DNA of 64,000 nucleotides from Yuukianura sp. NJ FZ-2021. Lineage: Eukaryota. The stretch's first letter is position 1; the number at the start of each line of letters is the position of its first letter. Shown here piece after piece: positions 2,808 to 53,874 of the stretch. Under the pieces are notes generated by a model that made no database searches, had not been told where the DNA came from, and saw nothing but the letters and a program-made list of their open reading frames with translations. A program made the translations under genes and the position numbers. The stretch covers positions 1 through 64,000 of the forward strand of contig CM102284.1 of NCBI GenBank assembly GCA_046563655.1, given 5' to 3'.

Positions 2808-4388
2808 GTTATCGTTGTAACAATCTTCTCAGGTAGCGGTTCCGCTGAAGGTTATCATTTGCGAGCCGTCGAAGAGTCAAACAATCCGAAACGTCCATGC
2901 ATTTTTAAACCAATGTTTTCTTTTACCAACTCAAACACAACTGACGTTCACACTGACAATATTCTTTATTCTCTCGTATATTTTTCCTACTATCGTCATT
3001 CGCGTACTAAAGGTTGTATATCAACAGCGGTGTTTTGACAAAATTATATAAATTAAAGGGGTGAAATACAATTTCCTGTCAGTCGTCTTCCAGAAGTCTG
3101 AGAAAGGACATCTCGCTGTGGAGAGAAAAATTTGTCGACAAATTTCTGAGTTTTTTGTATCAACGAGTTCATTTACATTCAAAAAGTCAATGTCTTCAAA
3201 GGAATCAACTACAACTGAGGTAAGATTTTGAAGGAGTAAATTTTCAAACCATATTGTAAGGCTTGCACCACAAATTCGTTGTGCATGCAAGGGGTCTCGG
3301 TCACGGTAGTGTGGCAGAAAAAAGGAGAACTACATGTTATCAGCAAAATTAAGGCTCAGAACTGATATCTCATCGGAGAATTACAGCTTGGGCGATACCG
3401 CTCGGTTTTCAACTACCAATAACCACTTAACATTCGTAGTAGGAAATTGAAAGATCTCGCCCCAACTTCACTGCTCCGATCACATATATCAATTCTGAGG
3501 CTTTATTTTGCTGACAACTAGTAGTTCTCCTTTTTTCCGCCAGACTAGAGTGACCGAGACCCCTTACATGTACACCGAACGAACTTTTTGTGAAATCCTG
3601 CCTTAGCAGGTAATATTGTCAGAAATATTTGGTCAGAAGTGAAATGATCAGGAGTGAAAAGGTCAGAATTCAAAACATCTCAGGTTAGGTTTGGTTACGT
3701 TCCTTCATTTCCTGATCTTTTTTATGTGATCATTTCACTTTTGATCTTTTCACTTTCTGACCAAATCACATGGAACCAATCCTGCAAATTGTATGTTATA
3801 TGCAACCCAATCCAACATAACACACGCTTATTTACATAGGATCTGGTTTTGGTGGGACAACTGATGATGTTTGTTCAATATTCAGAGTTGATGAAGGAAA
3901 CTGGCGTTGGGAAACAAATATTGGGAAATGTATCCGATGAGGAGGTAAATACATTATACACGTTCTACTAACAATCATATTCATAGTCATTATTAATTTT
4001 CATATAGATCAAACAAATGGCCTCCACCATTGTAGAAAGAGAGAGAACAACTGGTTTCACAATGGACATGCCCGATCCGGATTCTAATTTCATTGATGAT
4101 GTAATACGACACATTTCATTTGTAGTTTCAACGATTTTACATTTATATTATTGTTTAACCAATTTCCACTTTACTTTGTATTAGATGTCAGCAATTGCCA
4201 ACACCACGACTGCTAAAGAGTTTTTTAAAACTCTAACGCACGCAATCGCAAATCAATACTACAACCTTATGGAACTTATGAAGGCATTCGGAGAGGTTTC
4301 ACCACAAGTAGAACCCTTTACGAAGTTTTTTTTTCCGGCTTTGGAATCAATGATGGTGATTACTGATGCCTTGTTCAATCAGCTTTAG
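2808..4388 (+). CDS. Orphan spliced gene, 5' end not resolved
   Basis: Exons 2808-3012, 3083-3219, 3840-3944, 4008-4100 and 4185-4388 are phase-compatible with no stops (...DLVLVGQLMMFVQYSELMKE...|IKQMASTIVERE...|MSAIANTTTAKEFF...NQL*). No convincing upstream start exon was found. Confidence 0.55.
3258..3605. mobile_element. Foldback/MITE-like inverted-repeat element, possibly nested, in the long intron of the 2808-4388 gene
   Basis: aaggggtctcggtcac (~3289) is matched by gtgaccgagacccctt (~3550-3565). The imperfect inverted repeat extends ~90 bp inward, and weakly outward to taaggc/gcctta. Confidence 0.75.
3628..3766. repeat. Short imperfect palindromic element with a central ggttaggtttggtt spacer
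   Basis: tggtcagaagtgaaatgatca... is mirrored by ...tgatcatttcactt...ttctgacca. Confidence 0.55.
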
Positions 4389-8937: not shown

Positions 8938-11900
8938 GGTTTTTGTTCAATTTGTTCCTTTTGAGCTGCATGAGGCGATCTCTGAGGGTTTTTGTTCAAT
9001 TTGTTCCTTTTGAGCTGCATGAGGCGATCTCTGAGGGTTTTTGTTCAATTTGTTCCTTTTGAGCTGCATGAGGCGATCTCTGAGGGTTTTTGTTCAATTT
9101 GTTCCTTTTGAGCTGCATGAGGCGATCTCTGAGGGTTTTTGTTCAATTTGTTCCTTTTGAGCTGCATGAGGCGATCTCTGAGGGTTTTTGTTCAATTTGT
9201 TCCTTTTGAGCTGCATGAGGCGATCTCTGAGGGTTTTTGTTCAATTTGTTCCTTTTGAGCTGCATGAGGCGATCTCTGAGGGTTTTTGTTCAATTTGTTC
9301 CTTTTGAGCTGCATGAGGCGATCTCTGAGGGTTTTTGTTCAATTTGTTCCTTTTGAGCTGCATGAGGCGATCTCTGAGGGTTTTTGTTCAATTTGTTCCT
9401 TTTGAGCTGCATGAGGCGATCTCTGAGGGTTTTTGTTCAATTTGTTCCTTTTGAGCTGCATGAGGCGATCTCTGAGGGTTTTTGTTCAATTTGTTCCTTT
9501 TGAGCTGCATGAGGCGATCTCTGAGGGTTTTTGTTCAATTTGTTCCTTTTGAGCTGCATGAGGCGATCTCTGAGGGTTTTTGTTCAATTTGTTCCTTTTG
9601 AGCTGCATGAGGCGATCTCTGAGGGTTTTTGTTCAATTTGTTCCTTTTGAGCTGCATGAGGCGATCTCTGAGGGTTTTTGTTCAATTTGTTCCTTTTGAG
9701 CTGCATGAGGCGATCTCTGAGGGTTTTTGTTCAATTTGTTCCTTTTGAGCTGCATGAGGCGATCTCTGAGGGTTTTTGTTCAATTTGTTCCTTTTGAGCT
9801 GCATGAGGCGATCTCTGAGGGTTTTTGTTCAATTTGTTCCTTTTGAGCTGCATGAGGCGATCTCTGAGGGTTTTTGTTCAATTTGTTCCTTTTGAGCTGC
9901 ATGAGGCGATCTCTGAGGGTTTTTGTTCAATTTGTTCCTTTTGAGCTGCATGAGGCGATCTCTGAGGGTTTTTGTTCAATTTGTTCCTTTTGAGCTGCAT
10001 GAGGCGATCTCTGAGGGTTTTTGTTCAATTTGTTCCTTTTGAGCTGCATGAGGCGATCTCTGAGGGTTTTTGTTCAATTTGTTCCTTTTGAGCTGCATGA
10101 GGCGATCTCTGAGGGTTTTTGTTCAATTTGTTCCTTTTGAGCTGCATGAGGCGATCTCTGAGGGTTTTTGTTCAATTTGTTCCTTTTGAGCTGCATGAGG
10201 CGATCTCTGAGGGTTTTTGTTCAATTTGTTCCTTTTGAGCTGCATGAGGCGATCTCTGAGGGTTTTTGTTCAATTTGTTCCTTTTGAGCTGCATGAGGCG
10301 ATCTCTGAGGGTTTTTGTTCAATTTGTTCCTTTTGAGCTGCATGAGGCGATCTCTGAGGGTTTTTGTTCAATTTGTTCCTTTTGAGCTGCATGAGGCGAT
10401 CTCTGAGGGTTTTTGTTCAATTTGTTCCTTTTGAGCTGCATGAGGCGATCTCTGAGGGTTTTTGTTCAATTTGTTCCTTTTGAGCTGCATGAGGCGATCT
10501 CTGAGGGTTTTTGTTCAATTTGTTCCTTTTGAGCTGCATGAGGCGATCTCTGAGGGTTTTTGTTCAATTTGTTCCTTTTGAGCTGCATGAGGCGATCTCT
10601 GAGGGTTTTTGTTCAATTTGTTCCTTTTGAGCTGCATGAGGCGATCTCTGAGGGTTTTTGTTCAATTTGTTCCTTTTGAGCTGCATGAGGCGATCTCTGA
10701 GGGTTTTTGTTCAATTTGTTCCTTTTGAGCTGCATGAGGCGATCTCTGAGGGTTTTTGTTCAATTTGTTCCTTTTGAGCTGCATGAGGCGATCTCTGAGG
10801 GTTTTTGTTCAATTTGTTCCTTTTGAGCTGCATGAGGCGATCTCTGAGGGTTTTTGTTCAATTTGTTCCTTTTGAGCTGCATGAGGCGATCTCTGAGGGT
10901 TTTTGTTCAATTTGTTCCTTTTGAGCTGCATGAGGCGATCTCTGAGGGTTTTTGTTCAATTTGTTCCTTTTGAGCTGCATGAGGCGATCTCTGAGGGTTT
11001 TTGTTCAATTTGTTCCTTTTGAGCTGCATGAGGCGATCTCTGAGGGTTTTTGTTCAATTTGTTCCTTTTGAGCTGCATGAGGCGATCTCTGAGGGTTTTT
11101 GTTCAATTTGTTCCTTTTGAGCTGCATGAGGCGATCTCTGAGGGTTTTTGTTCAATTTGTTCCTTTTGAGCTGCATGAGGCGATCTCTGAGGGTTTTTGT
11201 TCAATTTGTTCCTTTTGAGCTGCATGAGGCGATCTCTGAGGGTTTTTGTTCAATTTGTTCCTTTTGAGCTGCATGAGGCGATCTCTGAGGGTTTTTGTTC
11301 AATTTGTTCCTTTTGAGCTGCATGAGGCGATCTCTGAGGGTTTTTGTTCAATTTGTTCCTTTTGAGCTGCATGAGGCGATCTCTGAGGGTTTTTGTTCAA
11401 TTTGTTCCTTTTGAGCTGCATGAGGCGATCTCTGAGGGTTTTTGTTCAATTTGTTCCTTTTGAGCTGCATGAGGCGATCTCTGAGGGTTTTTGTTCAATT
11501 TGTTCCTTTTGAGCTGCATGAGGCGATCTCTGAGGGTTTTTGTTCAATTTGTTCCTTTTGAGCTGCATGAGGCGATCTCTGAGGGTTTTTGTTCAATTTG
11601 TTCCTTTTGAGCTGCATGAGGCGATCTCTGAGGGTTTTTGTTCAATTTGTTCCTTTTGAGCTGCATGAGGCGATCTCTGAGGGTTTTTGTTCAATTTGTT
11701 CCTTTTGAGCTGCATGAGGCGATCTCTGAGGGTTTTTGTTCAATTTGTTCCTTTTGAGCTGCATGAGGCGATCTCTGAGGGTTTTTGTTCAATTTGTTCC
11801 TTTTGAGCTGCATGAGGCGATCTCTGAGGGTTTTTGTTCAATTTGTTCCTTTTGAGCTGCATGAGGCGATCTCTGAGGGTTTTTGTTCAATTTGTTCCTT

Positions 11901-14175
11901 TTGAGCTGCATGAGGCGATCTCTGAGGGTTTTTGTTCAATTTGTTCCTTTTGAGCTGCATGAGGCGATCTCTGAGGGTTTTTGTTCAATTTGTTCCTTTT
12001 GAGCTGCATGAGGCGATCTCTGAGGGTTTTTGTTCAATTTGTTCCTTTTGAGCTGCATGAGGCGATCTCTGAGGGTTTTTGTTCAATTTGTTCCTTTTGA
12101 GCTGCATGAGGCGATCTCTGAGGGTTTTTGTTCAATTTGTTCCTTTTGAGCTGCATGAGGCGATCTCTGAGGGTTTTTGTTCAATTTGTTCCTTTTGAGC
12201 TGCATGAGGCGATCTCTGAGGGTTTTTGTTCAATTTGTTCCTTTTGAGCTGCATGAGGCGATCTCTGAGGGTTTTTGTTCAATTTGTTCCTTTTGAGCTG
12301 CATGAGGCGATCTCTGAGGGTTTTTGTTCAATTTGTTCCTTTTGAGCTGCATGAGGCGATCTCTGAGGGTTTTTGTTCAATTTTGTTCAATTTGTTCCTT
12401 TTGAGCTGCATGAGGCGATCTCTGAGGGTTTTTGTTCAATTTGTTCCTTTTGAGCTGCATGAGGCGATCTCTGAGGGTTTTTGTTCAATTTGTTCCTTTT
12501 GAGCTGCATGAGGCGATCTCTGAGGGTTTTTGTTCAATTTGTTCCTTTTGAGCTGCATGAGGCGATCTCTGAGGGTTTTTGTTCAATTTGTTCCTTTTGA
12601 GCTGCATGAGGCGATCTCTGAGGGTTTTTGTTCAATTTGTTCCTTTTGAGCTGCATGAGGCGATCTCTGAGGGTTTTTGTTCAATTTGTTCCTTTTGAGC
12701 TGCATGAGGCGATCTCTGAGGGTTTTTGTTCAATTTGTTCCTTTTGAGCTGCCAATTTGTTCCTTTTGAGCTGCATGAGGCGATCTCTGAGGGTTTTTGT
12801 TCAATTTGTTCCTTTTGAGCTGCATGAGGCGATCTCTGAGGGTTTTTGTTCAATTTGTTCCTTTTGAGCTGCATGAGGCGATCTCTGAGGGTTTTTGTTC
12901 AATTTGTTCCTTTTGAGCTGCATGAGGCGATCTCTGAGGGTTTTTGTTCAATTTGTTCCTTTTGAGCTGCATGAGGCGATCTCTGAGGGTTTTTGTTCAA
13001 TTTGTTCCTTTTGAGCTGCATGAGGCGATCTCTGAGGGTTTTTGTTCAATTTGTTCCTTTTGAGCTGCATGAGGCGATCTCTGAGGGTTTTTGTTCAATT
13101 TGTTCCTTTTGAGCTGCATGAGGCGATCTCTGAGGGTTTTTGTTCAATTTGTTCCTTTTGAGCTGCATGAGGCGATCTCTGAGGGTTTTTGTTCAATTTG
13201 TTCCTTTTGAGCTGCATGAGGCGATCTCTGAGGGTTTTTGTTCAATTTGTTCCTTTTGAGCTGCATGAGGCGATCTCTGAGGGTTTTTGTTCAATTTGTT
13301 CCTTTTGAGCTGCATGAGGCGATCTCTGAGGGTTTTTGTTCAATTTGTTCCTTTTGAGCTGCATGAGGCGATCTCTGAGGGTTTTTGTTCAATTTGTTCC
13401 TTTTGAGCTGCATGAGGCGATCTCTGAGGGTTTTTGTTCAATTTGTTCCTTTTGAGCTGCATGAGGCGATCTCTGAGGGTTTTTGTTCAATTTGTTCCTT
13501 TTGAGCTGCATGAGGCGATCTCTGAGGGTTTTTGTTCAATTTGTTCCTTTTGAGCTGCATGAGGCGATCTCTGAGGGTTTTTGTTCAATTTGTTCCTTTT
13601 GAGCTGCATGAGGCGATCTCTGAGGGTTTTTGTTCAATTTGTCTCCTTTTGAGCTGCATGAGGCGATCTCTGAGGGTTTTTGTTCAATTTGTTCCTTTTG
13701 AGCTGCATGAGGCGATCTCTGAGGGTTTTTGTTCAATTTGTGTCTCTGAGGGTTTTTGTTCAATTTGTTCCTTTTGAGCTGCATGAGGCGATCTCTGAGG
13801 GTTTTTGTTCAATTTGTTCCTTTTGAGCTGCATGAGGCGATCTCTGAGGGTTTTTGTTCCAATTTGTTCCTTTTGAGCTGCATGAGGCGATCTCTGAGGG
13901 TTTTGTTCAATTTGTTCCTTTTGGAGCTGCATGAGGCGATCTCTGAGGGTTTTTGTTCAATTTGTTCCTTTTGAGCTGCATGTGAGGCGACTTCTGAGGG
14001 TTTTTGTTCAATTTGTTCCTTTTGAGCTGCATGAGGCGATCTCTGAGGGTTTTTGTTCAATTTGTTCCTTTTGAGCTGCATGAGGCGATCTCTGAGGTTT
14101 TTGTTCAATTTGTTCCTTTTGAGCTCAGGCGATCTCTGATTTGTTCAATTTGTTCCTTTGAGCTGCATGAGGCGA
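8938..14175. repeat. 49-bp tandem satellite, ~107 copies, putative telomere-associated sequence
   Basis: Unit gggtttttgttcaatttgttccttttgagctgcatgaggcgatctctga. It appears identical by eye up to ~12378, with indels accumulating toward the gap. Confidence 0.97.
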
Positions 14176-14232
14176 TTAGGTTAGGTTAGCTGTTGGGTTA
14201 GGTTGAGGGTTAGGTTAGGTTTAGGTTAGGTT
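14176..14232 (+). repeat. Degenerate (TTAGG)n arthropod-type telomeric repeat at the contig end
   Basis: ttaggttaggttagc...gttaggttaggtttaggttaggtt lies just before the N gap, with the G-rich strand pointing toward the end. Confidence 0.75.
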
Positions 14233-14251: not shown

Positions 14252-14351
14252 NNNNNNNNNNNNNNNNNNNNNNNNNNNNNNNNNNNNNNNNNNNNNNNNN
14301 NNNNNNNNNNNNNNNNNNNNNNNNNNNNNNNNNNNNNNNNNNNNNNNNNNN
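14252..14351. other. Assembly gap (100 N)
   Basis: Run of exactly 100 n, a typical arbitrary scaffolding spacer. Confidence 0.99.
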
Positions 14352-14545
14352 AACGTTAATACTCTAACTACTGTTATAATATACGGAGGAGAAAGTGGTC
14401 GGAACTAATTGTTTGGGATATAAATTGTAAAATCCAAAGTAGATTTAGTAAATGATAAGATGAGTACAACGTTAGACCACTTCGGTATGTACCCACATGC
14501 GTGGATTCCACAATGGAATTCCGAAGGAAGTTAGGAGGTTGGGGG

Positions 14546-16398
14546 TCAAGTGGGGGGTTCTGCGTGGAAAGTGTCCTTGAGCGCCACGGAGAAGATTCTG
14601 CCGACATTGGCTGCTCTCTTCTGTTCCAGTTTTGTGCGCAGGTCATCTTGATGAATGACGTTGAACGGGGACTTGGACAGAGCAGCAGTCGGTCGCTTCG
14701 ACGAATCCATCTTTCCGGAAAAGTCATCTCTTCCATCCGAATCTTCATTGTTCGGTCCACTCCGCGGGGAATCTCCAACAGCATCTCTCTCCAACTTGTC
14801 TTCGTGTGGCCTGGATTTTTTAGCCGCTGCACCCAATCGGCTTGGAATCCAACCTGAATTTGTCTCCTTCCTTGCCGCAACTTTGGATTCAAGGGCGATT
14901 GGTTCTTTGGGAGACTTGGAAGGAATTCCTTCCGGTGAGGATTTTAGGCTCACTTTTCCACTCTGGCTCACTCCAGACTCGAATTTCATCTTGCGCCTTC
15001 TAATCTTCAATCGCTGTTCCTCAGTTAAGTTTCTCAAGTCTCCTTCCGAAGATGGGCTTCTGCTTCTTCCCGTCTCTTCCTTAGCCGACTTTGGATTTGT
15101 TCCTTTGTTTCCAAGTGGAGATCTGCTGTTTCGTTGTGGACTTGCATGTCGAGAGTAATTCCGATTTCCCTTCCTGTCCCTTTCGCCTACTCGAAGTCTG
15201 TGGTCTCCAAAGGACAGGATGCTCCTGCGACTAGGAGAACTGGAACTGCGCCCATCACCTGATCCATTCACTTCACTCCTTCGTTTCTGCACAGTCCGGG
15301 CACTGTCACTCTCAGCATTAAGTCTGCTTTTGGGATTGAGTCTCCACCGGTCACGGGATCTTGAATGTGAGTCTTGTCCATACCTTCTTCCTTCACTTTC
15401 TCTGAATGTGATGGGAGACAGACATTCCTTGCGACTCCCTGTCTTGGACTGTCTTTTTTCAGGGGGCGAAGGTCGGCGACGAAGGGGAGGGCGGTATCGC
15501 CTGCATGCTGGAGATTTCGAGCGACGACTTCGATAGTGATTTCCTGAATGAGGGGAGAGCGGCCTCCGCAGTCTCTGGCGAGAGGATCCTTGTTCTCTCC
15601 GATCTCTGGAACACGGAGAGCTGGAACTCTGTTTTTTGGCATTCCTTTTCGGACTTGGCATCTTTCCTGGCTCTTCTGGATTAGTTCTTAGCCTATAAAT
15701 GTAAATGTTTTTATGATCAACTTGAAACAAAAAGTAAACAGAAACATTGAATGAGAACCTACCGTTTGGAATCTGTGGGACCAGAGGTGGATTCTGAGTT
15801 TACATCTGAGGATGTCCGTTTCTTGGACCCTCTAATTTCCTCTTCAACTGAATTTAGAATCTCGTCGAAAGAATCATGACTGGCTAAACTGACGGCATCT
15901 TCAGCCTCTTCTTCCTCTGGACTTGACATGTTCTCACCCTCCGACACAACAACTTCCTCAATCACTTGATCCACATCACCAGATGAAACAGAAAGTCCCT
16001 CTTCTAAAAAAACACACCAGTCAGCGACAAATTCATAACAACGTCCAGTTTCTTTGGGTTCATTGGTTGTGATAATTACCGACAACAGCATATTCGCTCC
16101 CACTGCTCGTCTCGTCATCACTCTGTCCGTTGTCATCGTCCTCTTCTATGGGGGGGCCATCATTCTCATTCTTCTTTTGGATTTCTTCCACCGGTTGAAT
16201 TGAGATGAGGTTGGAGTTTGACACTGGACGGTAAAAGACCTAATACAATACAAAAGAAACACTATGAGGATTGAAAAGTACTCAAGTGGACAGGGATTCA
16301 CTCACAGCACTCGTTTGGACTGGGAAGTTGTTCTTGAGGAGACTGCTGAGGGCCAGTTGTCGTAAGTTCTCCAAGTCAGTGTCGTCCGAGTCACTCAT
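14546..16398 (-). CDS. Ser/Arg-rich, probably nuclear, low-complexity protein (~546 aa)
   Basis: Exons 16398-16306, 16239-16080, 16003-15763 and 15692-14546 join in frame (MSDSDDTDLENLRQLALSS; acidic region; RS/SP-rich region; KIRRRKMKFES; DDLRTKLEQKR). Confidence 0.8.
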
Positions 16399-16674
16399 CG
16401 CTAACAACCAACTGACCTAAGGATATAAAAACACATGTCAAAACTGATTCCCTTTTAATAAGTTACATTGTTACCGTTTAGTTGATTGGAGATGAGGCTT
16501 CCTCCACTAATCCTCCAGATCAAGTGAATATGAACAGTTGCACAAGTTGTTATTCAAACTGAAGCAAAGCAACAGACAGTTATTCCTGATTACTAATTAA
16601 TTTAGTACTATTAATTGTTTTCTTGTAATCGAAGTGTGAAGATTAAATCTAAAAACTTAAACTTTTTAAATTAG

Positions 16675-16869
16675 GTTCCCGCACTTTGTCTCAAGTGCAA
16701 AACATAGGAGTGTCTAAGAATCAGATAACTCTATCTGCAGTTTCTACTCTTTTCCGAGTATTAGCCTCTGATAGTCACTTTGTGGCGGAATTTTTGTTAC
16801 ACGCGCGGTCCGCACTCAGAAAAGGAAAAAGTTATAAATAGGACCAGAGGAGTTACTTGTTACTCCTCT
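16675..16869 (+). ncRNA. Conserved structured non-coding element, copy A (candidate small RNA gene or promoter module; strand uncertain)
   Basis: Shares identical blocks of 25, 18, 14 and 12 nt with the reverse complement of 53014-53220. Contains AATTTTTG (16789-16796), TATAAATA and a terminal hairpin. Confidence 0.4.
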
Positions 16870-17157
16870 GTGCAGTAGAAGTTGTGGGGTGAAGTGGGCT
16901 TGAATAAAGTTGGAGCGAAGGTAGGCGCTATTTTCAAATTCAGATTGCGCAGCGTGCAATTGCGTCCGCGTGTTTTTGTGATCAAGTCCCTGTTTTCAGA
17001 TTCACTTTGGAATTCATCCTTGTCAGCAGTAGTCGTTCATCCAATTGTCATTACATTGACCTCGACGTCGTTCAACCAAAGGTCACCGTCTCTTCATTGA
17101 TTAATTTACAAGTTCTTTCCTGGTAAGAAGAACAGAATAGTTGAAGGCAACATGATC

Positions 17158-18957
17158 ATGGCAGCCGAGAAACGAAAGGTAAGTCTTCCTAATTTTTCTT
17201 CCTAACTTGAGTCTTGACTTAATTATGACTTGATTGTGTTTGCAGTCCGTTGGGGGAAACAATACCCCATCCAAATTTACCAAAAACCAACAAGGTAAAT
17301 CCCCTGGAGGACCTCAAGGTCATCGCCCCAAATTCGGAGGAAACAAGTCCTTCGGTGGTCAACAAAGTCCCAAGCAGCAACAAGGCAAAGGTAACCAGTT
17401 AATTCCTTTCAGATAGTATCTGGAATCAACTTTTCAACACACTGTTTTTGGCTGTAGGTGGAAATCCTCCGAAACAGCAACAGAAGCATGACAATCAGAA
17501 GAGTCAACCTCAGAATTTGAACAAGAAAGTGGCTCCTCCACCATTGGGTGCAAAGAAAGTGGAAGTGACGAAAGCCACTTCTCCACCGAAAGCTCCAGCC
17601 ACGCAACACCCAAAGCAGAAGTTCCAGAAGAAAGATCAAGCCAAGGGAGGATTGAATAAAGTGTCTGCGCAGAGTAAGAACATTTTCAAGAAATCCAAGA
17701 AGAGCCGATTCCAACGTTTCACTAGCGTAAGTAATCCACGGTTTCGCACTAGCATCTTCCCAATCGGTAAACTTGTGACTGTGTTTAGAAATTGGCTTCC
17801 AATCCAAGACCGGCTGGAGCGTGCGAGCGAGCAATGAAGGCAGAGCAGGAGCTGGGTCATGGTGGTCGTGTGTACTTGATCAAAGTGCATGATCCTCCCA
17901 TCACAGAGCAAATTGTAAAGGCGTGGCATGGCGGCATCGAAACTGCAGTCTTTGCCAAATCTGTCGAACCCAGACAGTTTCTCGTCATCTTCAAACACGA
18001 CGCAGACGTCAAGAAGGGAGTGGAAGCCTTGAAGAAAGTCAAATTCGCTGGTTCAAATATCACCGTAAGGAAACATTCCCAGTTCATTCTAAAACCTGCA
18101 AGTATCTTTATTCTCTTGCTTGGGTTGATCTAACTTTGTTTTTATTGTAAGGTGGAGGAGAAACTGGACAGTGACACGCGTGTGACGAATAACCCTGAGC
18201 ACATTGACCCATTTTGTCTCTACGTGACGAACATTCATGCAGATGCGACTAGAGAGGATGTGAAGAAACTCTTTTCCAAATGTACTACAGTCACCAATCC
18301 CAGGAAACACAATCCGAAAATCGGGTAAGAGATCTTAATCCTAGTTTCTAAATTCCATTTAAGACTAATGGGTTGTGCCTGTTTGGTAGGACTTCGACCA
18401 AGTTTTGTTTCGTTGCCTTTGAGTCTGCTAACGATGCTTTGGCTGGATTGAAGGACAACTACAATGCAACGTTGGCTGGGAACACGATTGTGATGAGGTT
18501 CCGACGTGAGAGTGCAAAGGAGCTCAAAGCGAGAGAACGGTCGACGGAGGCTGCAGTGGCCCCGAACAAGGGAGCTCAACAGGCCAAGGAACCTCAGAAG
18601 AAAGTAGACAAGAAGCCACTCAAGGCTGAGCCACAAAGTGAGGATGATGATGACGAGGATGAGGAAGAAACGGCGTTGGGTGGACCCGTTGCTGCGGCGG
18701 AGGATGACGACGAAGATGATGACGATGACGACGAGGTACGCTTATGCTGGAAAAAACAAAATAGGATTTAGAAACTATTTGGAATGAAGATGAAACTTTT
18801 AAATAGTTGTTTTATCCAACTTACAATCACTGTTTGTTGTTTTTAGGAGCTGGGAGTTGGTGAGGAAGATGATGATGAAGATGACGACGACGATGATGAT
18901 GACCTGGATGACGATGATGATGATGATGATGATGACGATGATGATGATGATGAGTAG
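17158..18957 (+). CDS. Nucleolin/modulo-like RNA-binding protein: Lys/Gln/Gly-rich N-terminus, two RRMs, C-terminal Asp/Glu tract
   Basis: Exons 17158-17178, 17246-17390, 17458-17726, 17789-18064, 18152-18324, 18390-18735 and 18847-18957. RNP2-like LYVTNI and RNP1-like KFCFVAF / RQFLVIF motifs, plus a poly-D tail. Confidence 0.8.
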
Positions 18958-19749
18958 TTATTTTTATATTCCGGAAAGTAATCTACAGTTGTCCTTTTGT
19001 AGAAATAAGTTTATGACTTGATATATTGTTTACATTACTTCTATGAGCCATGATTAGACTTTGGATACGAACTTACTAAAATCCTCATCCACTGTTCTTT
19101 GAATATGCTTGGATGTTTTAAGATGAATAAACCTTTCTTCTACAACTTATTCTCTAAAAATCGCGATTCCAGAACTAATTACGCAACAAGTGAGGCAATA
19201 CGGTCTTAGTTTTAATTACTTCGTTAGGTATGTAGTATGTGTTGGATTTTTGTTTGTGGATTGTTTTGAGTTTACTTTTGAATTTTTGAAGAGATTTCCC
19301 GCACTGGAGAACAGTGTCTAATTGTCAGAAAACAACGGGAGCACTTTGCCTCTTCCGGTGATTAGTCAACTGTACAATTTGAACATGCGACTTGAGGGCG
19401 GGAATTATTTTCAAAAGTTAAAAACAAAACAAATGTTGTTAAAAAACAGAAATTGGATTTGGAAACACAGTGAGTAGAGTAGGAATGTGAGTGATCAATT
19501 AAAATAGTAATTGGAATGATAATTGGTTGTTGTCTGCAGTTGAAATTGGAGTGATTGAAGAGATGAACTTGTATGGAGCGGAGGATGGGCTTGTGATCGG
19601 TGGCTGGGGCAACCACAGCAGTGCACAAATGGTAAAATCCAAACAAACATTCAAATCCCAACTTTGTAGATTGGAGAGTCAGTTGAAGATACTTTTTTGG
19701 TTTTGCAGGAAGGTGACTTGGATTGGAGATTTTTTTCAAGTGAATCACA

Positions 19750-22700
19750 ATGGGAACAGCATTCGTCGCTCTTCTTTTGTTGTTTCTGTGCCTGGATGGA
19801 GTGTGTGGGACAAAGGGCAAGTCCTGTGCCGTGATTGAGGTGGAGAAGGAGAGGCATGCCAACAGCATCGTCAAGGCAGAAGCCCAGTATGGGAAGGAGT
19901 GGTGCTGGAGACAGGAGCTCGTCAGGAAAACTGGCCGTAAGTAATTCCATCTTCATCAATCACTACTTTGAGCACAAACTAATTGAAATGTTGTTTCAGA
20001 GCGGAATTGCACGAGTGGAGACATGATTGGGCCACACACCAACGAACATGCTCCTCTCAAGTACTTTTTCACACTCTTCGTCATCATTGGCTACGGAGCC
20101 ATTGTGCGCACGATCCTCAAGAGTTACGCACTTCCCATTCCATACACGGTTATCTTTTCAATAAACCTACTTTACTAACAATTTAAATCATGAGTTCACT
20201 CTTTAACTTGACTTTTGATTCCAGGTTGTGCTCATGATTTCTGGACTCTGCTTTGGGTTCCTGTCCAAGAGCTACTGCGACGACTTGAACGAGTACACTG
20301 CCATTGCCAGGTCACCACCCAAGGTCATCCTCTTCACCTTTCTGCCCATTCTCATCTTTGAATCAGCATTCTCCATTCCAGTACATACATTCATGCGCAG
20401 TCTGTCACAGGTAACCAACAACTTTTCAATTCCTTTCCAGAAAAAAAGACAACTTTAAAAAGGAATCTTTGTTTTCACTTTGTGTAGATTCTGGTGACAG
20501 CATTTCCGGGTAAGGATGGTAGTTTTTGTTGTAATTTGGAGAAACACTTACTCTCTTTCTTTGTAGGAATGATCATCTCCACTTTTGCAACAGCAGGAGT
20601 TGCCATTTTGTTTCTCAGAGACTACGACTGGGACTTGAAGACGGCTGGACTCTTCGGATCAATCAGTCAGTTTACCACACTTACAAGTTGTAGATTTGAG
20701 GACTAATTTGGATTCTGTTTTTTGTAGTCAGCGCCACGGATCCAGGTACAACTACACTTTTTGAAGTGATGAAAGTGATGGAACTGTTTTTGTTTTGGCA
20801 GTGGCTGTCGTTGCAATTCTGCGAGAGTTGGGTAAGGCTTTGGCCCTTGACAGTTCATGAGTTGTGACTTTGATGTTGGATTTCCCTGTTCCAGGAACTT
20901 CTGAAATGCTGAGTGTGAACATTGAGGGGGAGTCTCTGTTAAACGACGGAGTGGCCATTCTGCTCTACGAAGTCTTTGAAAGTGAGTTCCACTTGGATCC
21001 TTCCATTGAAGTGAATAATTGGACGTTGTTTGTAGAAATCATGCTGTGTGACATCAACACGGAGACTCTGGGGGCGTGGAGTGTGATCGGAAACATAACA
21101 TTGATGTTTGTCCAAATTGCAATCGGAGGGTAAGTACTTTGTCCTACTTTTAACTTCCAGTTTGACCTTTTTAAATTAAAAATGTTGTTGTTTGGAGGCC
21201 GATCTTTGGGTGGGTGATGGCTAAAATTACAATTTTGTGTCTCTCTCGAATCTTCAACGATGCAGTTGTGGAAGTGACGTTGACACTCGTCGCAGCCTAC
21301 CTCACCTATTTTGTCGGTGAGTCTAAATTCTTACATTTCAAAACATTTGAGTTGAATTGAAAACTGATTGATTTTTCAGGAGAAAGAATTCTGGGAGTGT
21401 CTGGTGTGATGGCGGTTGTGAGTAAGTGGAATTTAGAAACCAAGTGAAATGAAGTTTAAAAAGTAGTGGTTGTTGTTAAGGTCTTGGTCTGACGATGAGT
21501 TCAGAAAGGACTTGCATCAGTCCGGAAGTGGAGTCGAGTGTGCACCACTTCTGGGAGATGCTGGGCTATCTGGCCAACACTGTCCTCTTTGTCTTTGTCG
21601 GAATCATCATCGCAGTAAGTACACTTATTCTGTCATTCTTTCATTCTATTTGTGGAGCCTTAAGTTTGTTGTGTGCAGGAAACGGCATTCAAGTCGGCTG
21701 GATGGACTGATTTGTACTACTTGGGTATAACAATGTACACTCTCTTTCAAACATAGCATTTCAAACACTCAATTCTTTCCAGGTTTTCTGTACATCGCTT
21801 TGAATTTGATTCGGTACTACTTGAACTACCTTTTCATTTTTACAATTTTCATTATTTCCATTCCATTCCATTTTTTAACTTGGAGGTTCATGATGCTTCT
21901 GGTTTTGTACCCACTTTTGGCCCACATTGGATACGGATTGACTTGGGAAAATGTAAAACACAATTCACAATTTACAACTAAAGTTTGAAACTTTCCTTTG
22001 AAATGGCTAACTTGTTTTGGTGCAGATGATGATCATGATGTGGGGAGGACTGCGTAAGAACCACACGTCATTTGTAATCCATCATTTTCCTCTGCTTAAT
22101 GTTTTGTGATTTTTGTTTTGAGGTGGGGCCGTGGGTCTGTGTCTCACACTGGAGGTTTACAACGGAGAACTGTGCACTTCCTACGGCAGAATTGGACCAA
22201 TGGTAACTCCAAACATATAAACTCCAAGAGTCAAAGTTAAATTCCTCTCTTTTCAAATTTTTCTATCTTTTCAGTTTCTGTTCCAAACTGCTGGCGTTGT
22301 GATTCTGACTCTGTGTGTGAATGGGACGACGACTGAGACACTCCTGCGCATTCTGCATCTCACTGACATTTCTGCCGGAAGACTGCAGGACATGCGGAAT
22401 GCAGTGAAGCAGTTGCACCACACGAAGGTCAAGGCAGTGGCCATGTTGAAACACGACCGCTTCCTGGCGGATGCGAACTGGCGCATAGTGGACAAGTACA
22501 CGACGATCACCGACCCCTATGTCACCACCACCCAAAAACCACTTCTAGTAGAGGTTCCCAGCATCCTCTCCCTCCGCCCAACTGCCAAGGACCACACCAC
22601 ACAATGTGCATGTAACACAAACATACTAACTACTCAAAACTTTAAGCATTTCCTACTTTGTAGTCATTTGAATTCCTCCTTAGTTTGTCACCATGAAATC

Positions 22701-25700
22701 AAGAATGAGCCGACGGAGAAGGAGTTTGAGGACATGACGGAAGAGGCTCGTCTCCGCGTCATCCGAGCCCTCAAGGTCACAAATCACTCTCAATTTAAAA
22801 CATTTCCTCCAATACACAACTTTTCAAAAATTGTGACTCCAATCCAGGTTTCATTTTGGCATCAATTCGAACATGGTAACAACAGTCCACTACTTTGACT
22901 AAATAAATTGGAAGGGTACTTGAAAGTTGTTTTGTAGGAGTGTTGACTGAGGTTGCTGTTCAGCTGCTGGTTGGAGTAGCGGAGACAGTGGAGGACAAGC
23001 CGTTTGGGATGGTGCATGCCAAGGATCTGCGCAAGTTCTGGCAAATCCATGGAATTCAGAAGTTCCTCAAAACAGTTTTTGTGAGAAGACTGACCGTGAC
23101 CAAGGACAGCACTCCTGAACCTACTACCAAGTAATAAAATTAAAAAAGAAATTAAATAGTAAATGATAATAAAGTTGAATTGTGGGACTTTTTGGACAGA
23201 TGTCTCCGTCCGTTTTGGCGACTGGTGGATAAGGCGTGGTTCAACTGGGCCATGATGATCCTAAATGTGCTCAACATGGTTCCAGTCATCATGGAGTTGT
23301 ACATGAGCAGAGAGAGGGAACTGCCACAGGAGGAGCAGGATGTCTTCTTCTACATCAACGTTGCCTTCACAGCCATCTACCTCTTGGAATTCATTCTCAA
23401 AGTAACCACAAACTACCTAATTCCTTCCTTTTTCCTAACTCTTTTCCAAAATGTGTTCAGGTCCTGGGCTACCGCCACCACTACTTCAAGAGTGTGTGGA
23501 ACTACATCGACCTCTTTGTTTTGATCGTGAGTGGAGCTGAAATTGGGATTCGAGTTGGGAATCAACGCAACAAGCAGGATGTGACTCTACGACGCATTTT
23601 CACTGGACTACGCTTGGCTCGTCTCCTCCGACTCCTCCGCATTCCACGAGTACACTCAACAAATGTTAGGATTTGGTCTATTTTGTGATTCATTTGTGGA
23701 ATTTGAATGTTTCCAGTACATCATTCCCGCTTTTCGCCACTACATTCTAGTCCAGATCAACAACCAGCTCTTCCTGGGATACGACATTGGACTCGTAAGC
23801 ATTACAATCTTTGCCAACTTTTCACAAAGCTCAACTTTTTAAACTTTTACTTAAATTGGCGTCGTATTCTCAGGGATTCATCAACGCTGTAATGGACGTT
23901 CTCAAGTTTTTGCCTCAAATGGTACCAACAAACACAACAAGTTTGGATTTTAAAGTAGACTTTTCATCTATTCTGGACAATTGTAGGTTGACCATCCTAA
24001 AATCCTGGACAAACTGCGCCAGAGTCTGGAGAAGGAGCGTTTAAACACAGTTCGTGAAATGGGTAAACAAACAAAGTCATTCCGCACAATCAAACCACTC
24101 AATGAACTTTGTTGTTTTCAGGATTGCTGCAGAAGGACCATCCTGGAATCGTGATTGCTGTCAAGACAAGACATGCGAGTCGAGCGATTTTAAACCAAAT
24201 GAGACAAGCTCTGCTGGAACTCAAAGAAGACGGTCAGTTCACCTTTTGACGTTCACCTCTGGCGGGAAATTTTAACTTTTGGCATTCTCTTAGGTCTGGT
24301 GGATGAAAAGGAAAATGAACTTTTGAACATCATGATTGAGGAGAACATGAAGCGACTTTGGAATTCCCCAGCCAGCATTTCTCCTTCCGATCCAGTCCTA
24401 CTCCTCGGTAACCAAAACACATCACAAATATTCCTACTTTCAACTTTACAAAACTAATCAATCTTATATTTTAATTTTTTAGAAAACGTTGCATGGATCA
24501 TTGGGGACGGGGCGTTGCTCAAGTTCATGAGAGTAAGCGAAACCAAATCCCCAAATTCTTCCTAACTTTACGGAGTCACCCAACTTTTTTGACCAACTTT
24601 GTTTTCCTTGTGTTTAGGAAAATGCACTTTTGCGGAACTACAACTATGGGGAACGGATTGCAGAAATTGGAGACGCTCCGGACGGAATCCACGTCGTCGT
24701 TTCTGGAATGATCAAAATCCACTTTATCCCACAACCGCAATTGATCGCTGTTAGACACTCGCTTACACATTCTAAAAAACGTTTTTAGTCAAGTGGTGTT
24801 AAGTTCATGGTTTTGTGTTTTAGACGATGAAGGAGACAGGGAGACTTCCGAACGTGGAGATTTTCTCAGACATGACGTTTGAGTGTGAGATGAACGATTT
24901 CCTGACGACAGGAGCAGTGCTGGGGGAAGTGGGTGTGTTGACGGGAGTGGCCAAAGCCTACTCTGCCACTTGCGAAACCTCTGTCCTCGCATACTTCATC
25001 TCCCTGGACGTCATCGCAAAAGCAATGTCCACCTTCGACCAACCAGTCTCTTCACTCCAGGCAAGAATGTGGAGAGCCATCGGACTCAAGATCGGCAGAC
25101 ACCTTCTCCCAGTCCACCCATTCCACCAAGTAAACAACTCACAAACTCATCAAACCTTTAAATTTTTTAACTTTTAAATTTTGAATCTAGGCTTGGCATC
25201 TGGACAAGATCAGAACTCATCTGGAAAAGTCGACTGTTGCCCTGGGTGATGCTTATGCAGAAATGAAGATCCCCAGTTACATTGCAGAGGTGATTGTGCT
25301 CCAAGGGAAAGTCAAAAACTTCCACACGAACGAAGTCTTCACTGCACCTCGTCTCCTCCCCCGCAGTTGCATCCAAATCATCAAAGTATTTACAAAAACA
25401 TTCTCCTACTTCTGCTCTTTTGTGAATTTGTAATTTTGGAATTGGTTTTGGAGGTTGAGAATTCAGTGGATCCGGTCCTCATGTTTGTAGCGGTGGATGA
25501 GTTGAATGAGGAGACTGAAATTGCAGATTCACAGACTTCCATCTACAATCGAATCATGTTTGAAACGACGGCTACCAACGGAACAACCAAGGTTACAAAT
25601 TCAACTTCCACTCAATTGGAACTTTTTGTAACTGAGTTTTGAACAGGTCGCCAGCACGAGTGGAGACAAGAGGAAACCGCCTGTCCTCAACTTCGCTGTC

Positions 25701-29892: not shown

Positions 29893-31810
29893 CTACACAA
29901 TCCAAAAACAACATTTTACTTTTTACAAAATACAAAACCTTTTAAAAATCCACAACTAAATGAGAAACTGTGCCAATGTGGACTTTTTTTCTTCATGTAC
30001 CAATTTCACTTTCGTTGACGAGTGCCAAGGGCTGGTCAAGCGTGTCTCACAGCAAACATAATCTTTAACATTTAACACAAAAAAAAAAGTTGACCATCAT
30101 CACCTTGAGGTTTGCCAAACGAAAGTGAAATCCAACTTCTTCTTTAGTTTGCAACCTTCTCAGAGAAAATGCCAAGTTGAAGTCAATCTAAGGAACAATG
30201 TAAAAATTAACCTTGAGAAATTTCAATTCCAATTTGACAATTTCATTTGTTTTGCCAAAGTAAAAAAAAAAAGTTAAAGTCGTTGTGCCACTTTTTTCAA
30301 AAATGTTTTCCAAAAAGTTTGCGCATTCAGTGGAATTTGGGAGACAATTTGAGTTAATTGACAAGGGAGTAATCGTTCATAATTGTTATGCTGAGTAGTC
30401 TAATGACACTCAATTCTCATTTCCAACCTAAAACTTACAATTACTAACATTTAAAAAACAGCATTTTCAAAATCATTTTTCCACAACGGTAATGGGGTCA
30501 AAAGTTAAAAAAAAACACATTGGGCTTAGATGTGTTTGAAGTTTGTTTTTGTTGCCTAATTGTTCACATCTTTTGTGGATGTTTGGAAGATGGTTATCCC
30601 ACGGTTGGGATTGGGAAGAAGAGCGGCTAATGAACTCTGTTTCTCCTTTTCTCCTTGGAGATGAGAGTGGGAGATCAAATTGCACAATCGCGAGAGTAAT
30701 CTCCGAACATTCTTCAATTTGACAGAATCCACCAACTCTTGAGGAAAGTTGATCCATTCTGTCTACTTTTTAGTCCGATTTCAAGAGATGCTGGAATGAG
30801 TGAACAATCATATCATTTCCGCCTCTTTAGTCTCAAGTACCGCCCAGTCCACCTTCTGCAACGACACATCACAAATTCCGCAGAATGACATTCGGATTTT
30901 TAAAAAGTTCGGTGCTCCTGTTCTTCACTCTCCAAAAATATGGAAGAACGTTTAAAGAAGTGTGCTTTGGGAGATTCTTTTAGAAAAAGTAGTGAATTAA
31001 GAGTGTGATGTGAAGTTACCTTTTGGAGCTTCTTTTCTTTGATGCTGAGGCGAGAAATGAGTTTGCGGAATTTGAATTTCGTGTCCGCCTCTCTCTTTTC
31101 CAGCACGTTGTCATCTTCGTTTAGGAGCATTCCGAGATTGATTACACAGAGCACAGTTTGATCCTTTCAGTTGGAAGACTGCAATTGTAGTGAAATTTAG
31201 GAGAGAGACTGCAGGGAGTCAGAGCACACATTCACCTGTCCACTTCGTATCTCGCAACAAGGAGTCACAGACACATCTCAAAGTGTCTCTCCTGACCTCC
31301 ATCCAAGTCCTGTCAACAAAAAATTAATGGGCTCCAAGTGACAAAGTGCAAAGTTAGAGGAACTTGAACTCTCACTTTCATTCAGCAGTTGAACAAGCAT
31401 CTGAATCCCCTTGATTTGTAGCATCTCCCACCCGACTGAGAAATCAAGAGATGAGAGATTTATCAGTCGATATCCCACCTCCACTTCCTTCCGTTCTGTA
31501 GAAATTATAATAAAAAATGTGAGAATTCTTTTAAATAAAACCACGGTATGAAGTTTAAACATCCTATGGTCAAGTAAACAAGTAGAAAGTGAAACCTAAT
31601 GATTGTTTAAGTCTTAAGTCTAACCTAACCTTTATCTCGCATCTTTTGAAGCTGATGGAAGATTACAACTGTTAGTGTGGCGAAAGGAAAAAGTGAAACT
31701 GTTGATCGGATTCACATTCACTGTGACCAAAAATAAAGGATTCTCATATAATTAAAAGTTAAGACTAAGCGGTTACATTGCTTTGTCTAAGATTTTTAGT
31801 CTAAAAAAAG

Positions 31811-34800
31811 GGTTTTCTCTTAAGGTGATTACATACTGTGAGAATAAAATTTTTGAAAAAGTTTTTCTCTTAAGGTGGTTACATACTGTGAGAATAAAAT
31901 TTTTGAAAAGGTTTTTCTCTTAAGGTGATTACATACTTTGAGAATTCAATTTTTGAAAAAGTTTTTCTCTTAAGGTGAGTACACACTGTGGGAATTCAAT
32001 TTTTGAAAAAGTTTTTCTCTTAAGGTGATTACACACTGTGGGAATTCAATTTTTGAAAAAGGTTTTCTCTTAAGGTGATTACATACTGTGAGAATTCAAT
32101 TTTTGAAAAAGTTTTTCTCTTAAGGTGATTATATACTGTGAGAATAAAATTTTTGAAAAAGTTTTTCTCTTAAGGTGAGTACACACTGTGGGAATTCAAT
32201 TTTTGAAAAAGTTTTTCTCTTAAGGTGATTACACACTGTGGGAATAAAATTTTTGAAAAAGTTTTCTCTTAAGGTGATTACATACTGTCAGAATTCAATC
32301 TTTGAAAAAGGTTTTCTCCTGACGTGATTACATACTGTGAGAATTCAATTTTTGAAAAAGTTCTTCTCTTAAGGTGATTACATACTATGAGAATTTAATT
32401 TTTGAAAAAGTTTTTCTCTTAAGGTGACTACACACTGTGAGAATTCATATTTTGAAAAAGTTTTTCTCTTAAGGTGAGTACACACTGTGGGAATTCAATT
32501 TTTGAAAAAGTTTTTCTCTTAAGGTGATTACATACTGTGAGAATTCAATTTTTGAAAAAGTTTTTCTCTTAAGGTGATTACATACTATGAGAATTTAATT
32601 TTTGAAAAAGTTTTTCTCTTGAGGTGACTACACACTGTAAGAATTCATATTTTGAAAAAGTTTTTCTCTTAAGGTGATTACATACCGTGAGAATAAAATT
32701 TTTGAAAAAGTTTTTCTCTTAAGGTGATTACACATAGTGAGAATTAAATTTTTGAAAAAGTCTTTCTCTTAAGTTGACTACACTGTGTGAGAATTCAATT
32801 TTTGAAAAAGTTTTTCTCTTAAGGTGATTACATACTGTGAGAATTCAATTTTTGAAAAAGTTTTTCTCTTAAGGTGATTACATACTATGAGAATTCAATT
32901 TTTGAAATAGTTTTTCTCTTAAGGTGACTACACACTGTGAGAATTCAATTTTTGAAAAAGTTTTTCTCTTAAGGTGATTACACATAGTGAGAATTAAATT
33001 TTTGAAAAAGTCTTTCTCTTAAGTTGACTACACCGTGTGAGAATTCAATTTTTGAAAAAGTTTTTCTCTAAAGGTGATTACATACTGTGAGAATTCAATT
33101 TTTGAAAAAGTTTTTCTCTTAAGGTGATTACATACAGTGAGAATTAAATTTTTGAAAAAGTTTTTCTCTTAAGGTGAATACATACAGTGAGAATAATATT
33201 TTTGAAAAACTTTTCTCTTAAGGTGATAACACACTATGGGAATTCAATTTTTGAAAAAGTTTTTCTCTTAAGGTGATTTCATACTGTGAGAATTCAATTT
33301 TTGAAAAAGTTTTTCTCTTAAGGTGATTACATACTATGAGAATTTAATTTTTGAAAAAGTTTTTCTCTTAAGGTGACTACACACTGTGAGAATTCAATTT
33401 TTGAAAAAGTTTTTCTCTTAAGGTGATTACATACTGTGAGAATTCAATTTTTGAAAAAGTTTTTCTCTTAAGGTGATTACATACTATGAGAATTTAATTT
33501 TTGAAAAAGTTTTTCTCTTAAGGTGACTACACACTCTGAGAATTCATATTTTGAAAAAGTTTTTCTCTTAAGGTGATTACAAACTGTGAGAATTCAATTT
33601 TTGAAAAAGTTTTTCTCTTAAGGTGATTACATGCTGTGAGAATTCAGTTTTTGAAAAAGTTTTTCTCTTAAGGTGATTACACACTGTGAGAATTCAATTT
33701 TTTAAAAAGTTTTTCACTTAAGGTGATTACATACAGTGAGAATTAAATTTTTGAAAAAGTTTTTCTCTTAAGGTGATTGCATACAGTGAGAATCAAATTT
33801 GTGAAAAACTTTTCTCTTAAGGTGGTTACATACTGTGGGAATTCAATTTTTGAAAAAATTTTCTCTTACGGTGATTACACACTGTTAGAATAAAATTTTT
33901 GAAAAAGTTGTTCAGTTAAGGTGATTATATACTGTGAGAATAAAATTTTTGAAAAAGTTTTCTCTTAAGGTGATTACATACTGTCAGAATTCAATCTTTG
34001 AAAAAGTTTTTCTCCTGACGTGATTACATACTGTGAGAATTCAATTTTTGAAAAAGTTTTTCTCTTAAGGTGATTACATACTATGAGAATTTAATTTTTG
34101 AAAAAGTTTTTCTCTTAAGGTGACTACACACTGTGAGAATTCAATTTTTGAAAAAGTTTTTCTTTTAAGGTGACTACATACTGTGAGAATAAAATTTTTG
34201 AAAAAGTTTTCTCTTAAGGTGATTACATACTGTCAGAATTCAATCTTTGAAAAAGTTTTTCTCCTGACGTGATTACATACTGTGAGAATTCAATTTTTGA
34301 AAAAGTTTTTCTCTTAAGGTGATTACATACTATGAGAATTTAATTTTTGAAAAAGTTTTTCTCTTAAGGTGACTACACACTGTGAGAATTCATATTTTGA
34401 AAAAGTTTTTCTCTTAAGGTGATTACAAACTGTGAGAATTCAATTTTTGAAAAAGTTTTTCTCTTAAGGTGATTACATGCTGTGAGAATTCAGTTTTTGA
34501 AAAAGTTTTTCTCTTAAGGTGATTACACACTGTGAGAATTCAATTTTTTAAAAAGTTTTTCACTTAAGGTGATTACATACAGTGAGAATTAAATTTTTGA
34601 AAAAGTTTTTCTCTTAAGGTGATTGCATACAGTGAGAATCAAATTTGTGAAAAACTTTTCTCTTAAGGTGGTTACATACTGTGGGAATTCAATTTTTGAA
34701 AAAAATTTTCTCTTACGGTGATTACACACTGTTAGAATAAAATTTTTGAAAAAGTTGTTCAGTTAAGGTGATTATATACTGTGAGAATAAAATTTTTGAA

Positions 34801-49800: not shown

Positions 49801-49855
49801 TTTCTCTTAAGGTGATTACATACTGTGAGAATAAAATTTTTGAAAAAGTTTCTCT
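31811..49855. repeat. 50-bp AT-rich tandem satellite, ~360 copies, with higher-order repeat blocks
   Basis: Consensus gtttttctcttaaggtgattacatactgtgagaattcaatttttgaaaaa; diagnostic variant monomers recur in conserved order. Confidence 0.98.
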
Positions 49856-50146
49856 GTTAAACTTTTAAAGTTCATACAAAAAGTGAACAGCTACCCTCGT
49901 CCTGTAAGTGGCAAACTGGAACGTACTACAAACAGTTTGCAGGAAAGTATTTTCGTGCATGATGTGGTCATTTATTATCAGTTGATAGTCCCAACTAACT
50001 GAGAATCTGCTAAAAATGTTAGCGTTTAGAACGATATCTGAGACTAGATGATTTAGCTAAACCAGCAGCATAATCTTAGGCGGGAGGAATAAATAATATA
50101 AAAATAGATTACTGGTAGAGCGGAAATATCACATGACATGTCATGC

Positions 50147-53013: not shown

Positions 53014-53220
53014 AGAGGAGTAACACGTAACTCCTTCGGGTTGTATTTATAACCTTTCCTATCCTGAGTGCGGACCGACGGTGTAACAAAAATTCCGCAA
53101 CAATTTTGTTTTCCAAGTTCTACCCCAGGCTAATCCTCGGGAATGAGCAGAAACTGCAGACAGAGTTATCTGATTCTTAGACACTCTTACGTTTTGGACT
53201 TGAGACAAAATGCAGGAATC
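53014..53220 (-). ncRNA. Conserved structured non-coding element, copy B
   Basis: Reverse complement aligns colinearly with 16675-16869. Confidence 0.4.
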
Positions 53221-53874
53221 TTTTCCTGAATTCAAAACTTTAATGAACGATTGATTTGATTAGTGCAATTATCAAAAATCAATTAATTTTTATGACTATG
53301 AGTGGGAAATGATGGATTTATGCGGTGCATAACATGTCCGTTGGTACGATGAGTCATAAAGACGAATGAATAAGTTTTTAATTAAAGTAATTGCATAATT
53401 AATATGATTAATTTAGATGGAGAGTGGGTGGGAGAGTGGAGTGAAGTGATTGAGGAGGTGGAGGGGGTCTTCGCCTGTGTTGGGAGTGCCAAATAACCTC
53501 TCCATTCATTCCCTTCTCTTCTGGATGAAAGATAGAGTGAGGTTTCTTGGCTGTTGAGTTTGTGGGCATATGAGTCCATCGACCGCCGCTCCCCACAGGA
53601 CACCCAGACGCCATTTCTACACTACAAATTACCCCTCTAATCCCATTTCATTTCTCTCTCTTTCGTCAATCGACAGACGATCCACTTCAATTAACTTAAG
53701 GACAAGGAAGGACCCAGAGAGAGGCCACACGCAAGGTCAACTCCACTCCAGCATCGACAACCACCAAGTAAGACTATCCAAGTCCATCATTAACGATCTA
53801 AAGACGACTGAGTAATTCCGTCTCTTTCAGATTGAAAAGTGAGTCACTGAGAAGGAACAGACACTGATTTGGCC

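Follow-up and report, generated by a model that had tools for sequence, protein, structure and literature searches.

A dispersed element directly 5' of first exons in Yuukianura sp. NJ FZ-2021 that may be a repeated promoter-proximal module

The window analysed here is a 64,000-nt stretch of genomic DNA from Yuukianura sp. NJ FZ-2021, and it contains a repeated element of which two copies, A and B, lie between divergent genes. Copy A has an RS-rich gene (minus strand) on one side and an RRM-like gene (plus strand) on the other; the neighbours of copy B are a minus-strand gene for a mitochondrial carrier and a plus-strand gene for a PP2A-type phosphatase. The head-to-head arrangement that a preliminary description of this DNA had given for both copies was borne out when the genes on both sides were read. 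The start codon of the RS-rich gene (ATG; MSDSDD...) is in exon 2, and the gene matches no Pfam family. The RRM-like gene has an ATG near 17150 and an exon end at 17176, and its product has an acidic tail; no Pfam RRM match was obtained on the exons tested, and the label comes from a below-threshold Atlas lead together with a reading of the translation. On the two sides of copy B, the carrier gene has its ATG at 51573 (Mito_carr, E 1e-15) and the phosphatase gene at 53876 (Metallophos, E 2e-16). A further plus-strand gene, downstream of a degenerate relative of the element that we call copy C, has an intron at 19631-19707 and an ATG at 19751, and its later exons match Ion_trans above the Pfam cut-off and Na_H_Exchanger below it. 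This joining of Na/H-exchanger-like with Ion_trans exons over 19708-24044 (+) is presumably the combination of the sperm-type SLC9C exchangers. Introns can be short here, with intron-like joints of 58-87 nt found across 14300-20000. The genes downstream of copies A, B, and C have no evident function in common.

Several other features of the window were recorded. A tandem array of a 49-bp unit (8938-14176; about 107 copies, 94% matches, strong AT skew) lies just downstream of the 3' part of the RS-rich gene, and an 18-kb satellite built from a 50-bp AT-rich unit (31806-49860; 27% GC, about 362 copies, 89% matches) lies between copies A and B. Directly downstream of copy B, degenerate repeats rich in GAGGAT and TTGAGG occupy 52247-52933 and may be part of a long first intron of the mitochondrial carrier gene. 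An inverted repeat at 3275-3368 and 3486-3579 (94-nt arms that are 86% complementary and separated by 117 nt) is possibly a foldback or MITE-like element, and a 289-bp unit is present as two tandem copies with 76% identity at 61253-61790. The minus strand also carries a Thr/Pro-rich, mucin-like open frame of 1153 aa with no Pfam family (57314-60775) and a proline-rich protein of 451 aa whose start resembles a signal peptide (62343-63698). In a collection of 5.8 billion proteins, one relative of the 451-aa protein (55% identity) was found among 3076 candidates, and this single relative indicates that the animal lineage is poorly sampled.

Alignment by blastn paired 16610-16869 (copy A, plus strand) with 53287-53014 (copy B, 53014-53287, minus strand) at E 3.7e-48. 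The colinear alignment of two copies in inverted orientation is thus real. The homology runs further than the extents first given, 16675-16869 and 53014-53220; the former is the core of copy A. The two copies are 80% identical in 16675-16869 as compared with 55% in 16610-16674 (Fisher P 1.6e-4), and the weak match of the latter stretch of copy A to copy B gives the homology a ragged end. A gap of 1-2 nt was misplaced by MAFFT near the TATA box described below, and the true identity of the core is nearer 85%. The other end of the homology is sharp and falls directly after ...ACTCCTCT, at 16869 in copy A and 53014 in copy B. At this end lies a 24-nt palindrome, AGAGGAGT..ACTCCTCT (16846-16869; counterpart in copy B at 53014-53037), which sets the letters CTCCTCT on both strands, back to back.

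The identical blocks noted earlier are also genuine. The 25-mer (16708-16732) and the 18-mer (16785-16802) were each found at exactly two places in the window when up to three mismatches were allowed, and two matches arose in none of 100 shuffles for either. The letters AATTTTTG are at 16789-16796 of copy A. The conserved halves are separated by an unalignable spacer that does vary in length as described, being 16 nt in copy A (16769-16784) and 27 nt in copy B. Searches of larger collections gave no matches to the 25-mer in metagenome contigs or in viral contigs and none to a 31-letter pattern in prokaryote genomes; the 18-mer matched 14 metagenome loci, which is about the chance expectation, and at all 14 the likeness ends after 18-30 nt. 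The claim that conservation is blockwise fared less well, in that the blocks exist but their pattern is marginally beyond chance at 80% identity. When matches and mismatches were shuffled over the 195 ungapped columns, the longest run was at least 25 in 9.7% of trials (P 0.10) and the observed sum of the top four runs was reached in 3.8% (P 0.04). The conserved blocks therefore barely exceed what uniform decay at 80-85% identity would give, and do so marginally (P 0.04-0.10).

The element had been described as present twice, and this no longer holds because there is a degenerate third relative, copy C, at 19274-19407 (+). The lead to copy C was a 10-mer common to the element and position 19296, and nhmmer with a profile of copies A and B found it at E 3.2e-4. 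Among the controls, the reversed window gave a best E of 1.3 and 30 local shuffles one of 0.24, and none of the 30 reached 3.2e-4. In local alignment copy C scored 25.5 with A and 30 with B, as compared with at most 24.5 for 375 random windows, which were scored against A only. Copy C retains, in unchanged order and with altered spacing, TTCCCGCAC, AGTGTCTAA..TCAGAnAAC, TTCCG..GATTAG, and GGCGGGAATT, and it is without CGGTCCGCACTCAG, the TATA box, and the palindrome. The RRM-like gene, whose polyadenylation signal (AATAAA) is at 19126, ends before copy C; the next gene on the plus strand begins directly 3' of it with a non-coding first exon, and copy C is outside any head-to-head gap. No divergent gene begins beside copy C, so that it can serve a gene in its forward orientation only. 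All three copies lie directly 5' of a first exon, and their orientation relative to that exon is the same. A profile of the three copies found nothing further in the window, no more copies were seen in its approximately 40 kb of non-satellite sequence, and other k-mers shared within the window, copy C excepted, were at chance level.

These properties can be read in more than one way. The copies might be the inert remains of a mobile element that inserted into open promoter DNA and has since decayed neutrally, with the blocks arising by chance, an explanation that we consider unlikely. The copies seem to differ in age, with A and B about 80-85% identical and C much more diverged, their orientation differs, and all of them are in gene-free gaps at 5' ends. 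The marginal block pattern and a homology that is sharp at one end and ragged at the other are also in line with it. By contrast, the hallmarks of such an element were not found. A search for terminal inverted repeats in copies A and B gave none, the only inverted repeat being the palindrome at one end; there is no coding remnant and no target duplication shared by the copies. An earlier statement to the same effect holds for the inverted repeats, the coding remnant, and the flanks of copy A, which have no exact repeat of at least 6 nt, but not entirely for copy B, whose flanks have an imperfect repeat only. The lack of further copies in the approximately 40 kb of non-satellite sequence also speaks against mobile remains, as does the coincidence of the sharp end with the predicted start region of a transcript (see below).

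Additional evidence came from contigs of four sequencing runs placed on 14300-20000 at 80% likeness. The first run, X1, had been guessed to be DNA, yet it carries spliced contigs. Nine intron-like joints (6 GT..AG and 3 CT..AC) were found in X1 that are missing from X3 and X5, so that X1 behaves as RNA, that is, as a transcriptome. The alignment of record 4 of X1 (460 nt; depth of 190) to 16473-16840 contains 14 substitutions and 26 gap letters; the contig continues for 9 extra letters past 16840 and has a joint 16473>16414 with CT..AC ends. This joint (depth 190, side 76) marks a 58-nt first intron of the RS-rich gene at 16415-16472 on the minus strand. Because record 4 is spliced across it, minus-strand RNA holds the core of the element in the non-coding first exon of this gene. 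That exon occupies 16473-16849 (-) as far as the contig reaches and includes the core through the TATA letters, although the end past these letters may have been extended by background reads, as X1 has depth in 30 of 30 bins of 14300-20000. The source of record 4 is the copy A locus or a close allele, orthologue, or paralogue. The strand opposite the plus-strand gene is therefore transcribed as a leader at copy A or its close relative, and we infer the same for copy B with the phosphatase gene.

The same contigs provide a comparison between copy A and a close relative. Two DNA contigs of X3 have a loose end at 16840 and a median of 37 differing letters past it, which means that the palindrome has been replaced in a close relative of copy A and is not indispensable. 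The RNA contig ends before the DNA contigs do, and this is a weak hint that a transcript starts there. Record 4 has 13 listed substitutions; the conserved blocks (150 nt) hold one of them and the remaining 218 nt hold 12 (Fisher P 0.010, rising to 0.033 if the single unlisted substitution falls in a block). In the core at 16675-16840, three of the four substitutions of the relative are in the spacer at 16769-16784. This deficit within the blocks is modest evidence of constraint, and it argues against mobile remains that decayed neutrally.

Read depth was less informative. X6, the sole run recorded as RNA, covers 18199-18736 only, outside the element. Summed depth is elevated across all of 15828-18310 without singling out the element, and since it is raised well beyond the element it is not readable as copy number. 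Many contigs and high summed depth of X3 at 16769-16782 could have indicated extra copies of the element; this was rejected because contigs are as numerous at nearby positions (10 at 16017). Contigs of X1, X3, and X5 have a 210-nt gap with 5 other letters instead at 14774-14985, in a coding exon of the RS-rich gene, and those of X3 and X5 have a 105-nt gap or replacement at 16878-16984, just 3' of copy A. Over 17039-18363, X3 and X5 contain unspliced contigs that are approximately 5% diverged from the RRM-like gene and have a depth far above that of window-like contigs (for example, 1048 for record 19 of X5 as compared with about 10), and the spliced contigs of X1 over this gene are window-like. 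The diverged, high-depth contigs could come from a multi-copy paralogue or from a second lineage in the samples.

A TATA box, TATAAATA, is located at 16833-16840 (+) in copy A, and by its letters at 53044-53051 (-) in copy B. In both copies TATAWR is matched on this strand of the element and not on the reverse strand, where none of the six 6-mers fits. PMC5580651 gives TATAWR as the consensus and places its first T at -32 to -28 from the start. In copy A the first T of the box is followed after 30 nt by a pyrimidine run, CTCCTCT (16863-16869, +); in copy B the distance is 31 nt (53014-53020). The homology between the copies halts 36-37 nt past this T, at the end of the run. We take the run as the putative start region of a plus-strand transcript, a position deduced from the letters that falls within the range expected from the TATA box. 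CTCCTCT is also one arm of the palindrome, so the same letters are on the other strand approximately 10-17 nt away, and this repetition suggests back-to-back divergent starts.

The element thus resembles a TATA-containing Pol II core promoter in a bidirectional gene pair in having TATAWR on one strand in copies A and B (copy C does not have it), a candidate start rich in pyrimidines at the distance from the TATA box where a start is expected (PMC5580651), a position for A and B between divergent genes, and another strand that leads to a spliced mRNA leader. It differs from ordinary promoters in that approximately 200 bp can be aligned between the promoters of unrelated genes, and the starts proposed here are predicted. 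There is also some likeness to the TCT, or polypyrimidine, initiator, since a C-led pyrimidine run at the predicted start is kept in A and B. However, the run fits the TCT consensus at 5-6 of 7 positions at best, with the T of the TATA box then at -33/-34, according to PMC5580651. The same review describes TCT as a motif of ribosomal-protein genes, whose transcription in Drosophila uses TRF2 and not TBP, whereas the present element has a TATA box and its genes are not ribosomal-protein genes.

We also considered whether the blocks are the sequence of an RNA. The element had been called structured, and by eye it had been said to match none of U1, U2, U4, U5, U6, U7, U11, U12, 7SK, SRP, RNase P/MRP, or tRNA. 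The second point agrees with Rfam 15, which gave no matches at gathering score in the 64 kb; in E-value mode around the copies there were three and two matches, all with E of at least 0.85 and at most 15.9 bits. The first is not supported, as all six folds (both copies on both strands, and the predicted Sm-class RNA of each copy) had z-scores between -0.81 and +1.03 relative to dinucleotide shuffles. RNAalifold on the two sequences gave approximately -18.7 kcal/mol on both strands with three versus one double changes, and no usable covariation. In the stem CAGATA/TRTCTG, to which weight had been given, a G.U pair is indeed preserved, but by one change on one side only. A lineage-specific small RNA gene of approximately 100-125 nt, on either strand and in several copies within divergent promoters, seems improbable to us. 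Some named RNA classes were discarded. Telomerase RNA was rejected on the grounds that the TTAGG-like letters at 16672-16676 are not retained in copy B; box C/D or H/ACA snoRNAs, a tRNA-derived SINE, and a spliced-leader RNA were rejected by eye, the last having no GT kept in copy B after the candidate leader.

One specific proposal was a Pol II gene for an Sm-class snRNA on the copy-A strand, with PSEA and PSEB at about 16674-16710, a start near 16735, and an Sm site, AAUUUUUG. We consider it very unlikely. In its favour, both A and B retain AAUUUUUG, and the CAGAUA/UAUCUG stem has a single change, which leaves a G.U pair on the copy-A strand. An Sm site stands between stems and is accompanied by a stable 3' stem-loop. 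The Sm-like site here is followed by U, lies within the loop of GCGGA/UCCGC (there is no other stem nearby), and is missing in copy C. The RNA that would be made includes the unalignable middle, the length of which is unequal between the paralogues, and it has fold z-scores of -0.11 and +1.03 and no match in Rfam.

In the upstream part of this proposal, CATAGGAG (16703-16710) is at positions 30-37 from 16674, and this equals the PSEA-to-PSEB spacing of D. melanogaster as given in PMC1761439. Like the insect snRNA promoters (PSEA/PSEB and PSEA/TATA) treated there, copy A has a TTCC-containing block followed by an 8-mer at the right distance, and its other strand has an A/T box followed by a body and a T run. 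Unlike them, it has the invariant PSEA letters in part, its best conservation in what would be their spacer, and no known snRNA after it. The PSEA-like stretch, GTTCCCGC in A and ATTCCTGC in B, has 4 of the 7 invariant letters in each copy (ATTC-CAA in D. melanogaster; PMC1761439), although the D. melanogaster consensus may not be that of the host; insect snRNA promoters evolve rapidly according to that paper, and an incomplete match is for these reasons not decisive. The longest identical run, 16708-16732, is upstream of the predicted start at about 16735 and between the proposed PSEB and this start, where conservation is not expected of snRNA genes. Copy C keeps the PSEA-like block, but the spacing differs. 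The position of the longest run, the 4 of 7 PSEA letters, the lack of an Rfam match, and the missing Sm-like site in copy C all weigh against an Sm-class RNA.

The other specific proposal was a Pol III RNA on the opposite strand, with the palindrome and the A/T box as an external promoter, a start at about 16810-16817, a length of approximately 105-125 nt, and an end at a T run. The order of palindrome, A/T box, conserved body, and TTTT is common to A and B, and the TTTT is present on the reverse strand of both copies (16699-16702 in A, where the plus strand reads AAAA), as a 3' T run of such a gene should be. In addition, the sharp boundary of the homology would be the outer edge of the promoter, and the blocks resist change in the close relative. 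Even so, we think a Pol III gene here quite unlikely. The reverse strand is without a TATAWR match. A TATA box would be required approximately 25-30 nt before the start, but GAGTG starts at a distance of 23 nt from the box's first T, and the closing stem GAGTG/CACTC is therefore probably partly outside the RNA; nor is the spacing from box to GAGTG the same in the two copies, the difference being 1 nt. Beyond the T run, conservation extends for approximately 25 nt, with 21 of 25 positions identical, and TTCCCGCAC in this stretch is also in copy C. On this strand the A-to-G change in the CAGATA stem produces a C-A mismatch. The palindrome has no PSEA core and is replaced in the relative, the fold z-scores (+0.38 and -0.81) indicate no excess stability, and there is no Rfam match.

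Among the three readings first put forward, the best fit is with the last, a shared promoter module or exapted mobile element. Our interpretation, to which we give somewhat better than even credence, is that this is a promoter-proximal DNA module, dispersed and perhaps of mobile-element origin, rather than the gene of a structured RNA. The module would be an upstream sequence of approximately 200-260 bp that ends in a TATA box and a short palindrome, and transcription probably begins in both directions at the palindrome. On the copy-A strand, TATAAATA would set the start of the downstream first exon in CTCCTCT. The gene served would be the RRM-like gene at copy A and the Na/H-exchanger-like gene at copy C, which is TATA-less, and copy B would serve a short exon on the way to the gene for the mitochondrial carrier. 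Read from the opposite strand, this DNA would be transcribed as the 5' leader of the divergent gene, as record 4 shows for copy A or its close relative. The copies would descend from one sequence, either by duplication or as an old mobile element that settled in promoters, and the blocks are most likely transcription-factor binding sites or leader signals kept by selection. Candidate factor sites that we take to be present in the blocks are a TTCCCGC-type site, a GATA-containing palindrome, ATTAG, and an inverted GCGGAA. Against this interpretation, 80-85% identity over 200 bp between the promoters of unrelated genes requires a duplication event; the lack of an evident shared function among the downstream genes, the replaced palindrome of the close relative, and the partial TCT fit also count against it.

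Promoter-associated dispersed repeats are exapted fragments of mobile elements that supply promoters or 5' exons. The present element is similar to these in that related copies of unequal age are at the 5' ends of unrelated genes, each contributing a TATA box and a leader, though copy C is without the TATA box. It is different in that the hallmarks of a transposon were not found in copies A and B.

A discrete small RNA from this element would, if true, matter more than a promoter. A promoter module would be useful for annotation and for reporter constructs, and it does not open a long-standing question. If the promoter reading is true, one cis-regulatory cassette has been reused at three unrelated genes within 40 kb, and it would provide a ready-made TATA-containing, possibly bidirectional promoter in a poorly studied animal lineage. 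The element may thus be a small case of promoter spread via duplication or a mobile element.
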